A stretch of DNA of 64,000 nucleotides from Rickettsiales bacterium (lineage in GTDB: Bacteria > Pseudomonadota > Alphaproteobacteria > Rickettsiales > SXRF01). Shown in pieces: positions 12,908-15,800 of this stretch. Both the position numbers and the translations under genes were made by a program. The notes under the pieces are model-generated. The model searched no databases and was not told where the DNA came from. It saw nothing but the letters and a program-made list of their open reading frames with translations. The stretch lies in contig JAJTHB010000005.1 of assembly GCA_021299465.1 (NCBI GenBank), forward strand, positions 254,971 through 318,970, written 5' to 3'. Every line of letters begins with the position of its first letter. Position 1 is the first letter of the stretch.

Positions 12908-13576
12908 ATGAATGCAAATTACTGCTGCAAACCGATAGCGCTAGTTGTTTTATCATGCCTAATTATTCTTGCGCTATCGCCACATGAAGCAGCCGCTGAT
13001 GCTAAACATTCCTACTTTGTAATGACCGAGAGCAAGTCCTCTAACCTTCGTCCATTTCCTAAATGGACGGGCATGATGGAGCGCCAAATCGCGGAAAATA
13101 AATTACCCGATGAAGAATGTGGTAAACAGAAGTTTCACCCATGCGTCGTCAAAGATTGGCGCGCACTAATAAGTGAAATCAAAGAAAAGCCGCTTCGTGA
13201 TCAGGTTGAATCAATTAATCGCTGGGCTAACGATCACCCCTATATTGTGGATCAACTAAATTGGGGGATGGAAGATTTCTGGGTAACGCCTTACGAGTTT
13301 ATGGCGATCAGCGGTGACTGCGAAGATTATGCCATCGCTAAATATTACTCGCTGCGAGCACTTGGTGTGCCGGAAGATCAGATGCGCATTATGATTGTTC
13401 AGGATTTTAATCTCGGCGGGATTATTCATGCGATACTTGGCATCTACGTGGATGATGAGCTGCTCATTTTAGATAACCAGATTAAACAAGTAATGCCGGC
13501 TATGAATATCTACCACTATCGTCCTATTTATGGTGTCAATGAAAGCTGGTGGTGGGCTTACACACCCCTTAGTTGA
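12908..13576 (+). CDS. LapG-like transglutaminase-like cysteine peptidase (BTLCP/peptidase C93), secreted
   Basis: Signal peptide; EDFWVTPYEF, GDCEDYAIAKY (Cys), HAILGI (His), LILDN (Asp), YRPIYGVNE. Confidence 0.9.
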   Translation: MNANYCCKPIALVVLSCLIILALSPHEAAADAKHSYFVMTESKSSNLRPFPKWTGMMERQIAENKLPDEECGKQKFHPCVVKDWRALISEIKEKPLRDQVESINRWANDHPYIVDQLNWGMEDFWVTPYEFMAISGDCEDYAIAKYYSLRALGVPEDQMRIMIVQDFNLGGIIHAILGIYVDDELLILDNQIKQVMPAMNIYHYRPIYGVNESWWWAYTPLS

Positions 13577-13637
13577 TTATTGTTTGGTCATCGGGCGTTT
13601 TTTTTGATAAAACGCCATGAAACACTGGAGTTTAGTT

Positions 13638-15800
13638 ATGTCTGCCATCGACACATTACCGAATGACTCAGAAGATAAAACAAAAGAGCCTGAGGCAACC
13701 AATTTTTCGCCGCGCATGTACGGCATCGTGCTTCTGGTCGTTGCTATTATTATTACCGGCATTTTCTTTATCAGTAAATTCACCCAGATGGACCTGACAA
13801 GGGATTTGCAGACCTGGCAGGAAAAGCTCAACCTGATTGCGGAAAGCCGTAGTAAGGAAGTAAGCGGTTGGGTGGGTGGCAACTTCGCAGAGCTGCACAA
13901 GCTATCTGATAACCCTGCACTTCAGCTTTATTTAAGCGAGTTGCAATCGATAGCGCAGAATGGAACCCAGCAACATACCGAAGAGCCGGCACAGAAGACT
14001 TACCTTCGCAATTTGCTAATGTTTACCGCTGAGCGCGCAGGCTATATCACCTCAAATGTATCAGCTTCACAAATAAGGGCTAATATTGAAGAAAATGCTG
14101 ATAGCGGCCTTGCGGTGCTGGATGCAAAAAACAAGATTGTTGTTTCCAGCGCTACCTCACCTCTCGTCACCGAGCAAATCTTGAAACATGCCGCTGAATC
14201 GCAGGCGGGCAGGGATGGGTTTGTTGACGTCAGTAAAAATGGCGATAAGCTTCAAATCGGCTTTAGCGTTCCAATCTTTTCTATTCAAGGCGAACGCAAT
14301 GCCAATGCTCAAATTGGTCGCGTCGTTGGTATTAAAACCGTTGATGCTGATTTCTTTGCATTATTGAAACACCCGGGCGTTACCGAGCAAACACTGGAAA
14401 CCGTATTGGTTCGCAAGGCGGACAAAAAAATAGAGTTTCTGTCACCGCTTCAGGATGGCTCGAGTGCATTAGCCAAGCAGGTCGATTTCATGCCCGACCG
14501 CACGGTTGAGGGTAGCCTTATTGAAACGGTCGGCAGCTTTAGCAGCGAAAAAAATGACTATCGTAACCGTAAGGTGCTTGCTACCTCTCGTACCATTGAG
14601 AACACGCCATGGACGCTAATGGTGAAGGTCGATCGCAAAGAAGCTCTTACAGAAAGTGACCAGCGCCGCGCAAGCATGATCATGTTCTTTTTCTTCCTGA
14701 TTGCCACGATTGTGCTGATTATCTTTGCCGTTTGGTGGCATGCGCATTCCAAGCGCGCGATGATGATGTCGTATCATTTCAAAAAAATTGCCTCGGAAGC
14801 GCGTGCACAAGAAAAGCTTTTGCGCCTGGTTGCCGATCATCAGCCGGAGCCTATTTTCATACTGGATCAAAATTACCGCTTTCACTTTGCCAATCAGAAA
14901 ACCTCTGAAAATGCAGATATGAGCGCCCAAGGGTTGATCGGAAAATCAATCAATGATGTTCGTGGAACAGCGCGCGCCGAACGATTAATTGGCCAGTGCG
15001 AAAAGGCCAGCCTTGAAAACAGAACGGTTTATGGGATCTCGCAGGTTATAGAAGGTGGTCAGGAGCGTATCATTCGGTCAGCTTATGTGCCGCTCGATCA
15101 CATTCCTATCGCCAGCCTGCCGGAACCTACACCCGGCATATTGGTTGTTGAACAGGATATCAGCGAGGTGGTGCATGAGCGCGAGCAACGTATCCAGACT
15201 CATAACCAACTCATTCAGACACTCATAAGGCTAGTTGATAAACGTGATCCTTACGCTGCTGATCATTCCATGCTGGTGTCCCACATCGCCTGCGAAATCG
15301 CGATTGAGATGGAGCTTGATAATACGATGGTGGAAACGGCGCGCATTGCTGGCAGCCTGATGAATATCGGTAAGATCGTCGTGCCACACGAGCTGCTGAC
15401 TAAATCCGAGAAACTGACGGACGAAGAGCGCCGCGTGATTCAGGAATCGATGTTTGTGGCCGCTGACTTGGTCAAATCCATTCAGTTTGAAGGCCCCGTT
15501 GTTGAAACGCTTAGACAGTGGCAGGAGCGCTGGGACGGTACAGGTCCGCTGGGTCTTCAGGCGGAAAAAATCATCATCTCCGCTCGTATCATTGCGGCGG
15601 CCAACGCCTTCATCGGTATGATCAGCCCGCGCTCATGGCGCAATGCCATTGCCATCGGCGCCGCCAATAAATTCCTGCTTGATCAATCCGATATTCTGTT
15701 TGATCGCAGGGTTGTGGTGGCGCTGATCAGCTATGTTGAAAACCACCATGGACACGCATGGCTTAATAAAATGCTCGATGAGAAGAAAAAAGCGGCTTAG
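13638..15800 (+). CDS. Membrane sensor: 2 TM, periplasmic Cache-like domain, PAS, degenerate HD-GYP domain
   Basis: Two TM helices around a ~300-aa periplasmic region ending [12 protein letters not shown] (EPIFILD..FANQ..QDISE); HD-GYP fold ([40 protein letters not shown]); GGAG RBS. Confidence 0.85.

Follow-up and report, generated by a model that had tools for sequence, protein, structure and literature searches.

Two adjacent genes in a 64,000-nucleotide stretch of a genome assembly labelled Rickettsiales bacterium (GCA_021299465.1, contig JAJTHB010000005.1, positions 254,971 to 318,970 of the forward strand; hereafter the window) encode a LapG-like protease and a membrane receptor with a degenerate HD-GYP domain, and taken as a whole they are probably best explained as a DvhG/DvhD-type module, in which a receptor for cyclic diguanylate (c-di-GMP) gates an exported protease. 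DvhD and DvhG (DVU1020 and DVU1019, together DvhDG) of Desulfovibrio (Nitratidesulfovibrio) vulgaris Hildenborough were introduced in PMC10990149 (PNAS 2024), in which a DvhD piece spanning PAS and HD-GYP binds c-di-GMP with a Kd of ~322 nM and DvhD controls DvhG in a P. fluorescens reconstitution; three parts of DvhD were solved in PMC13090378 (Nat Commun 2026), namely the periplasmic dCache domain, PAS/HD-GYP, and HD-GYP with c-di-GMP. By homology, the pair in the window is an alphaproteobacterial member of the DvhDG kind already described in 2024 and 2026 and not a new kind of switch.

An initial annotation, made from the letters of the sequence, had read the pair as an inside-out c-di-GMP switch built on a pseudo-HD-GYP domain, with adhesin release as its output, in a Rickettsiales-like alphaproteobacterium, where it knew of no description. 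The inside-out switch is the best-supported reading because the receptor is homologous to DvhD, in sequence and in fold, over all three solved parts, whereas the adhesin output has no support in this genome. The kind of switch was already known from DvhDG, and the Desulfovibrio DvhD/DvhG pair that the annotation had named is confirmed by PMC10990149 and PMC13090378. Pairs in Alphaproteobacteria were not found described: among the papers listed by literature searches there was no account of LapG-like/HD-GYP pairs in this class, and the class-level distribution in PMC13090378 may already include them. The annotation had further suggested a survey of the conservation of the pair, a model of the periplasmic domain with the protease, and searches for a canonical LapD and for RTX or type I secretion system (T1SS) adhesins, the outcomes of which are given below.

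Window coordinates of the two open reading frames (ORFs) and of the parts of the receptor were as follows:

12896..13576, + strand: LapG-like protease ORF, 226 amino acids (aa) from a GTG start; an alternative ATG at 12908 is codon 5.
13617..15800, + strand: DvhD-like receptor ORF, 727 aa; an alternative internal ATG at 13638 gives 720 aa.
13716..13787, + strand: predicted transmembrane (TM) helix 1, residues ~34-57, a 22-residue hydrophobic run within model helix 34-97.
13788..14651, + strand: predicted periplasmic two-lobed dCache-like domain, residues 58-345, from the AlphaFold2 (AF2) model and a Foldseek match to 9rc2.
14664..14738, + strand: predicted TM helix 2, residues ~350-374, a 21-residue hydrophobic run within model helix 345-407.
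14838..15158, + strand: cytoplasmic PAS domain, residues 408-514, from Pfam PAS_4 and alignment to the DvhD PAS domain in 9rc0.
15159..15239, + strand: helical stalk between PAS and HD-GYP, residues 515-541, from model helix 516-540 and alignment to the DvhD stalk.
15240..15752, + strand: degenerate HD-GYP domain, residues 542-712, from Pfam HD_5 and alignment to 9rbz and 9rc0.

The two ORFs were found on the same strand where the initial annotation had placed them, and its observation as a whole was confirmed; the 61-bp spacer that it had given between protease and receptor was reproduced with the receptor start at ATG 13638, which yields the 720-aa form present as entry P0001 of the protein collection.

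Pairing of protease and receptor is far beyond chance, as the pair recurs across related loci. A protein search with the receptor returned 169 proteins at E <= 1e-10 among 7,998 scored candidates; the best 120, each from a metagenome-derived sequence, cover 94% or more of the query with an identity of at least 50%. When representatives clustered at 50% identity were searched exhaustively, the search returned 562 proteins at E <= 1e-30, the best 150 of which (all E <= 1.5e-94) are mostly ~700 aa long and align end to end. In a one-genome-per-species scan, 242 genomes encode a receptor relative, and 80 loci from these were kept for neighbourhood analysis. Most are metagenome-assembled genomes (MAGs) labelled Rickettsiales, Alphaproteobacteria, Rhodospirillaceae or Dongiaceae bacterium; the cultured organisms among them are Dongia deserti, Dongia soli, Virgifigura deserti and Roseospirillum parvum. 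The survey of conservation showed a BTLCP protease gene adjoining the receptor gene in 70 of the 80 loci. In 33 loci, which make up a closer clade, the protease gene is co-directional and directly upstream, with larger gaps in two (~1.25 kb in L032 and ~0.6 kb in L066), and in 37 loci of a more distant clade it is divergently transcribed (~3.6 kb away in L059, L065 and L075); these two orientations imply that the linkage survived a rearrangement. Among the 10 loci without a protease gene, the receptor lies within 520 nt of the locus start in four (L037, L069, L077 and L082) and has 1,246 nt upstream in L051; the other five have sufficient flank, and a BTLCP gene is found elsewhere in the genome for three of these five.

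Seven of the neighbourhoods were annotated with Pfam. The close clade keeps a context of nusA...pnp, the pair, and parC-recO (or trpA-trpB), and in Dongia, Virgifigura, Roseospirillum and Hwanghaeella the pair is flanked by unrelated genes; no adhesin or T1SS operon was found within 10 kb in any of the seven. Clustering of 1,198 neighbour ORFs from the 80 loci likewise yielded no recurrent adhesin or T1SS gene, and the recurrent neighbours reflected local synteny only. Within the order to which the window's genome belongs, 151 genomes were sampled, of which 40 (33 of the 126 of high quality) carry the receptor and 111 do not; within its family it is present in 7 of 7 sampled genomes, all of ~2 Mb. 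The host had initially been called Rickettsiales-like, a label that did not hold up in that it does no more than repeat the NCBI names of related MAGs; the genome has flagellar genes and a tail gene like those of gene-transfer agents (GTAs). Pair loci were also seen in records labelled Terriglobia, Acidoferrum, Flavobacteriales/Flavobacteriaceae and Mesoflavibacter (L048, L059, L063, L076 and L084), with receptors 36-39% identical to that of the window and sequences that group with Dongiaceae/Rhodospirillaceae-type loci; mis-binning, mislabelling or horizontal transfer could be the cause.

The architecture initially described for the receptor (two TM helices, a periplasmic Cache-like domain, PAS and HD-GYP) was borne out by Pfam, AF2 and Foldseek. 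Pfam matches were obtained to PAS_4 (31 bits, residues 407-495) and HD_5 (99.8 bits, cut-off 27.2, residues 535-699), and several close homologues carry precomputed Pfam dCache_1 matches. An AF2 model built from 32 homologues (pLDDT 78.3) comprises a TM helix, a two-lobed alpha/beta periplasmic part, a second TM helix, PAS, stalk, and a helical HD-GYP domain. The best sequence matches in the PDB were 9rc0 (DvhD PAS/HD-GYP, E 4.1e-33, query residues 399-716) and 9rbz (DvhD HD-GYP with c-di-GMP, E 5e-29), and the best match to an active HD-GYP enzyme, 4mcw (E 7e-14), was far weaker than the DvhD entries. With the model as Foldseek query, 9rc0 ranked first (E 7.8e-15) and 9rbz aligned at 36% identity; the periplasmic part matched the DvhD dCache domain 9rc2 (E 1.2e-7, TM-score normalised to the target (TMt) 0.70), which was the best of the dCache-type matches, 2p7j and 3lid reaching a TMt of ~0.5. 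With 9rc0, 9rbz and 9rc2 at the head of these matches, no solved structure comes closer to the respective parts of the receptor than the three DvhD pieces; from sequence and model, the receptor is a full-length homologue of DvhD.

DvhD has the order TM-dCache-TM-PAS-degenerate HD-GYP (PMC13090378), and the window receptor shares with it the TM, dCache, TM and PAS elements, the stalk (in DvhD a dimerisation and pivot element; PMC13090378) and an HD-GYP domain devoid of metal ligands. The two pairs further have in common a BTLCP protease encoded beside the receptor and, by hand mapping, the retention of most c-di-GMP contact residues. The sequences differ considerably, identity to DvhD being ~36% for HD-GYP and 14% for the periplasmic part. 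In the receptor family, HD-GYP is the most conserved domain, with a mean column identity of 0.77; PAS reaches 0.62 and the periplasmic part 0.64. In a comparison of 71 receptors (70 full-length ORFs from related loci and that of the window), conservation within the periplasmic part is highest at residues 91-110 and 124-143. The first of these stretches covers, in the model, the last part of helix alpha1 and a short helix (100-114) that breaks off from it; such a broken helix (alpha1') also occurs in DvhD, where it is implicated in an AlphaFold 3 model of the dCache-DvhG complex (PMC13090378).

Loss of the HD-GYP active site was uniform. In the window receptor, the HD dyad is replaced by M582-N583, with [M/L/I]-N at this position in 71/71 receptors; S611 sits where active HD-GYP enzymes have His; HHE is replaced by W635-Q636-E637, with no His at the HH positions in 71/71; GYP is reduced to G643-P644 by deletion of the Tyr; the metal-binding Asp is N663 in 71/71; and the RPYR-type motif reads R672-S-W-R675, both Arg residues being present in 71/71. 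Each substitution listed by the initial annotation (HD to MN, HP to SM, HHE to WQE, GYP to G-P, AD to AN, RPYR to RSWR) was thereby recovered in the alignment and column counts, as were two of the basic motifs it described as kept, IGK at residues 584-586 and RSWR at 672-675. The first His of the HD-GYP fold, H550, is retained in 71/71. The receptor shares the fold of active HD-GYP phosphodiesterases (PmGH 4mcw/4mdz, PA4781 4r8z, V-cGAP3 5z7c); having lost every metal ligand, it is expected to be without catalytic activity. DvhD has also lost its metal ligands, with SQ for HD (MN in the window receptor) and MN for HH (WQ in the window receptor), and according to PMC13090378 it hydrolysed no c-di-GMP with any added ion. 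A domain so conserved and yet so uniformly degenerate points to a ligand-binding pseudo-enzyme under selection.

Residues that contact c-di-GMP in DvhD were mapped by hand from the printed alignment, and the columns were then checked in a 32-sequence alignment; DvhD numbering equals that of the 9rbz chain plus 490, for which the anchors K520/Y523, P567/R569 and L577/K582 were all consistent. The correspondence was:

Canonical site, DvhD Y523: Y546 in the window receptor.
Canonical site, DvhD L577: L600.
Canonical site, DvhD K582: R605.
Canonical site, DvhD Y621: deleted.
Canonical site, DvhD M646: M668.
Canonical site, DvhD R650: R672.
Canonical site, DvhD Y652: W674.
Canonical site, DvhD E668: Q690.
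Bridging site, DvhD K520: R543.
Bridging site, DvhD P567: P590.
Bridging site, DvhD R569: E592.

By this hand mapping, seven of the eight canonical contacts are identical or conservatively replaced, and the eighth, the GYP Tyr, is deleted. Residues R543, M582, N583, W635, E637, N663, M668, R672 and W674 are invariant in 32/32 sequences, and R543 is present in all 71 receptors.

The protease was matched by Pfam Peptidase_C93/BTLCP (PF06035) with 61.1 bits (cut-off 27). The LapG-type Cys-His-Asp set reported initially is intact: the motifs GDCEDY, HAIL and LDN were all found, and the catalytic residues C142, H178 and D193 are invariant in 32/32 aligned proteases from related loci. The putative calcium-site residues D141 and E143 flank the catalytic Cys (G-D141-C142-E143-D-Y) and are conserved in at least 90% of these 32 sequences; their DvhG equivalents, D316 and E318, are needed for calcium-dependent activity (PMC13090378). 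In the PDB, the best sequence matches were Legionella LapG (4fgo, E 2.1e-23) and P. fluorescens LapG (4u65_E, E 4.2e-17), and the six highest Foldseek matches of an AF2 model (pLDDT 87.4) were all LapG structures. At its N-terminus, the protein has a short hydrophobic signal-like segment ending in ...HEAAA-DA, which by eye reads as a signal peptide and would direct export to the periplasm; its homologues have similar N-termini. Hildenborough DvhG differs in having a TM helix and a ~180-residue linker, although most DvhG orthologues also have signal peptides (PMC13090378). The pair has in common with LapD/LapG (P. fluorescens; Legionella CdgS9/LapG; 4u65, 4fgo) the protease fold, triad and calcium-site motif and, in the proposed reading, the placing of a periplasmic protease under the control of a c-di-GMP receptor. 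The window receptor itself is unrelated to LapD and matches no LapD_MoxY_N, HAMP, GGDEF or EAL family. The window protease differs from LapG in an extra conserved N-terminal segment with invariant F54, W57, C75, C83 and W88 (32 sequences).

The genome (1.95 Mb in 36 contigs, 98.6% complete) carries one BTLCP gene and six GGDEF-domain matches, four of which have an intact GG[D/E]EF motif and one a degenerate GGDEF with an EAL motif; it thus encodes putative diguanylate cyclases. The search for a canonical LapD gave no LapD_MoxY_N (PF16448) match in this genome, a soft negative in that no control genome passed the cut-off either, and five larger-genome relatives likewise gave no match, with control genomes again without one.

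By analogy with DvhDG, for which the nucleotide is proposed to splay the stalk helices and so send a signal from the inside out (PMC13090378), we infer c-di-GMP binding, inside-out signalling and protease control for the window pair. The protease would be exported to the periplasm and act there as a calcium-dependent enzyme with a Cys-His-Asp triad. The receptor would be a dimeric inner-membrane protein whose HD-GYP domain, unable to bind catalytic metals or to hydrolyse its ligand, would instead bind c-di-GMP supplied by GGDEF enzymes of the same genome. Binding of the nucleotide would pivot the stalk helices, and the movement would be passed through PAS and the TM helices to the periplasmic dCache domain, whose membrane-distal helices would then hold or inhibit the protease; a drop in c-di-GMP would free the protease to cut a periplasm-exposed target.

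Several results weigh against this reading and were set against the evidence above. Within the nucleotide site, the GYP Tyr, whose DvhD counterpart Y621 hydrogen-bonds a c-di-GMP phosphate (PMC13090378), is present in only 1 of the 71 family members; the guanine-specificity position, E668 in DvhD, varies (Q in 23, N in 14, E in 14 and D in 9 of 71); the K582 position is hydrophobic in 16 of 71; and at the bridging site the window receptor has E592 where DvhD has R569. The missing Tyr and the variable E668 position make ligand specificity less certain, as predicted from sequence, than in DvhD. The same wiring could on these grounds answer to another nucleotide, such as 3'3'-cGAMP, pGpG or c-di-AMP: the specificity residue is Q690 here, the phosphate-contacting Tyr is gone, and in DvhD the HD-GYP domain has room for 3'3'-cGAMP too and, to a weak degree, for pGpG and c-di-AMP (PMC13090378). 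Such a ligand is nonetheless improbable, given that L600, M668, R672 and W674, which clamp the bases or bind phosphate, are conserved as in c-di-GMP-bound DvhD, and that the genome encodes four proteins with intact GG[D/E]EF motifs and one with an EAL motif; a cGAMP synthase was not searched for.

The protease scored 90.8 bits against the NCBIfam LapG equivalog NF045674, below its cut-off of 320, and is accordingly classed from its sequence as a LapG-like BTLCP and not as a LapG orthologue in the strict sense. Structure prediction of the complex, carried out with receptor residues 58-350 and protease residues 36-226, gave a weak pass only and returned no interface. Its outcome was 'weak support' at a median ipSAE of 0.35 (0.44, 0.31 and 0.35), the best of three controls scoring 0.00; at least 82% of contacts recurred between runs, and the partners had a pLDDT of at least 84. 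In calibration of the tool, the mark was reached by 58 of 80 solved complexes and by 2 of 110 mismatched pairs, and at an ipSAE of 0.60 or less by only 7 of the 80 solved complexes together with both mismatches. Given the strong prior from gene linkage, the prediction raises the odds of a receptor-protease contact a little.

Domains of the dCache type are usually ligand sensors, and the signal could run from the outside in, with the dCache domain sensing a periplasmic small molecule, the dead HD-GYP/PAS part serving as output or scaffold, and the protease being a ligand-processing or unrelated partner. For DvhD, too, an extracytoplasmic ligand could not be excluded in PMC13090378. It is the HD-GYP domain, however, that is most conserved in the family, and it retains the residues of the nucleotide site; in the periplasmic part, conservation peaks in the helices at 91-110 and 124-143; and DvhD acts inside-out on DvhG in the reconstituted system (PMC10990149). 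Outside-in signalling in place of the c-di-GMP-driven route is therefore also improbable, although the two directions are not mutually exclusive.

Further negatives came from the search for a substrate, which was carried out on the whole genome. No match to retention_LapA was found at E <= 1 and no RTX repeats, and a hidden Markov model built from alphaproteobacterial retention-module N-termini gave a best E of 0.36 over 12,274 six-frame ORFs. The model of the T1SS membrane-fusion protein (MFP; HlyD, TIGR01843) has a cut-off of 208.65 bits, and nothing scored above 38.6; of the four MFP genes hit, three adjoin RND-type (AcrB-like) pump ORFs, as judged from the ORF list, and the fourth is part of an FtsX/ABC (MacAB-like) operon. 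For LssB/LapB-type ABC transporters the best score was 296.6 bits against a cut-off of 693.1, the N-terminal domain being uncovered in all. The cleavage motif DP-x(0-8)-[TAP]AAG had a single match in the 1,980 called ORFs, in an ORF judged from its sequence to be a cytoplasmic alanyl-tRNA synthetase, and hence none in a plausibly exported protein; bare [TAP]AAG sites number 99 in the same ORFs. Among the 34 longest open frames (at least 910 aa), 20 were scanned with Pfam, skipping seemingly housekeeping ones, and none was adhesin-like: they comprise enzymes, flagellar proteins, TPR/AsmA/YhdP-type envelope proteins, a GTA-like tail protein and one unassigned 1628-aa protein. ORFs running off contig ends look like housekeeping genes and not like fragments of repeat-rich adhesins, and two close relatives (G006 and G007, ~2 Mb) gave no retention-module match. 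TolC-like outer-membrane efflux proteins (OEPs) were the only T1SS-type component found. The absence of an adhesin and a T1SS, as it appears from profile searches of a draft assembly, is not proven. The adhesin-release output of the initial annotation is accordingly unsupported in this genome, where its proposed search for RTX/T1SS adhesins found none and no LapA-like adhesin or T1SS was detected, in contrast to the Lap system with its LapA-type substrate and to DvhDG.

Carriers of the pair with larger genomes gave a different picture. They encode giant ORFs with N-terminal retention-module matches below the cut-off (30-42 bits, cut-off 50), of 6671, 3414, 1934 and 1347 aa in Hwanghaeella and of 1402 aa in Roseospirillum. 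The 3414-aa Hwanghaeella protein (L116) has the sequence ...DIETAAGG ~216 residues past the start of the module match, and L116, L118 and L120 (3414, 1347 and 1934 aa) are clustered within ~10 kb of the chromosome at ~2.20-2.21 Mb; these three are candidate substrates of the Hwanghaeella BTLCP/DvhD-like pair. A giant LapA-like adhesin is plausibly the target in larger-genome relatives, and for the family as a whole a part in processing adhesins is reasonable.

The unassigned 1628-aa protein of the window's genome (L094, G000:C16:78950-83833) was considered as a substrate and rejected as unsupported, being absent from three receptor carriers (G011, G016 and G020) and lacking a DP..[TAP]AAG site. 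It matches no Pfam family and has a lipobox-like N-terminus (LFLLGSC) and a run of well over fifty Ser-Asp repeats followed by a large Cys-, Tyr- and Pro-rich region; found in 12 of 15 genomes of its own family and in 1 of 10 of other families, it may be a family-specific surface protein. Other large ORFs recorded in the course of the scan include an unusual 2009-aa fusion of eight PF11397 (GlcNAc-transferase) stretches with AhpC/TSA and two 2OG-Fe(II) oxygenase domains (L093, G000:C32:15322-21348), a very large flagellin (1211 aa; L099, G000:C4:73885-77517) and a very large hook protein FlgE (1120 aa; L103, C4:83571-86930), both with long central insertions, and a 1227-aa protein with GTA_TIM, Phage-tail_3 and Rcc01698_C domains (L098, G000:C36:170405-174085), which suggests a gene-transfer-agent-like cluster.

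For the ~2 Mb freshwater family, it is conceivable, if rather doubtful, that a c-di-GMP-gated LapG-type protease works without a T1SS or LapA-like adhesin and cleaves a different periplasm-exposed target. If true, BTLCP/second-messenger proteolysis would have gained a further class of output, the second one and not yet described, operated by a stand-alone two-gene module. The same negatives, that is, no substrate or T1SS in the genome and no retention-module match in two close relatives, would also be expected of a relic in a streamlined lineage, kept by linkage to housekeeping genes and having neither target nor function. Useless genes are normally lost from streamlined genomes of ~2 Mb, yet the receptor is present in every sampled genome of the family; both ORFs are intact, and catalytic and ligand-site residues are invariant across the clade, which makes a relic very unlikely. 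That the receptor still works as an HD-GYP phosphodiesterase, turning over c-di-GMP at an unusual active site, is scarcely credible: Pfam HD_5 and HD exceed their cut-offs and H550 is kept throughout, but the HD dyad, HH pair and metal-binding Asp are replaced by non-ligands in all 71 receptors, and DvhD with analogous losses failed to hydrolyse c-di-GMP (PMC13090378).

Within the window, the pair forms a stand-alone two-gene unit between pnp and parC among housekeeping genes, with rimP, nusA, infB, rbfA, truB, rpsO, pnp and then a small Lys-rich ORF upstream, and parC and recO downstream on the opposite strand. DvhDG lies inside an adhesin/T1SS operon. Pfam was scanned on 52 of the 57 called window ORFs (50 plus the pair); truB, rpsO, pnp, parC and recO were named from their translations and from Pfam matches of syntenic genes in two related loci (L009 and L012). 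No adhesin and no T1SS ABC or MFP gene was found among the 52 scanned ORFs or the five named by translation and synteny, as the initial annotation had stated for the window. Four differences from DvhDG are notable: the replacement residues, the lost GYP Tyr, the stand-alone two-gene layout, and the lack of a detectable adhesin or T1SS in the clade.

A lone TolC-like OEP gene (window 35975-37663, - strand, 200 bits) was located, flanked by a DUF2497 gene and ileS; no gene for an ABC or MFP partner lies close by. The Lys-rich ORF just upstream of the protease gene (window 12364-12645, - strand) encodes 93 aa rich in Lys and Ala, and its counterpart in a relative (L029:8582-8887) has a weak histone H1-like HC2 match under the cut-off. 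At Rfam gathering thresholds, two tRNAs only were detected in the window; around the pair, matches were sub-threshold and at chance level, and no c-di-GMP riboswitch was seen. An inverted repeat between the protease and receptor genes was no more stable than shuffled sequence (z -0.9), and a promoter/terminator scan gave fewer promoter-like sites than in shuffles, with none on the + strand upstream of the pair. DNA near-identical to window 12800-15900 (at least half of sampled words) was present in 12 runs that carry a freshwater or lake-water metagenome label and belong to five coded studies; four of these 12 runs may be the source sample, and no RNA run was among the 21 runs listed for this segment.

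DvhDG has so far been characterised only in Desulfovibrio (2024, 2026). The receptor family examined here is large (242 species genomes; 562 representatives), catalytically dead throughout and in nearly all cases accompanied by a BTLCP protease, and by analogy with DvhD the pseudo-HD-GYP receptor would be a widespread alphaproteobacterial c-di-GMP effector and not a peculiarity of sulfate reducers. With its missing GYP Tyr and its MN in place of SQ, the family offers a natural set of variants for testing which c-di-GMP contacts are needed, and the small-genome clade, having no recognisable adhesin or T1SS, offers a clean system for finding other targets of LapG-type proteases.

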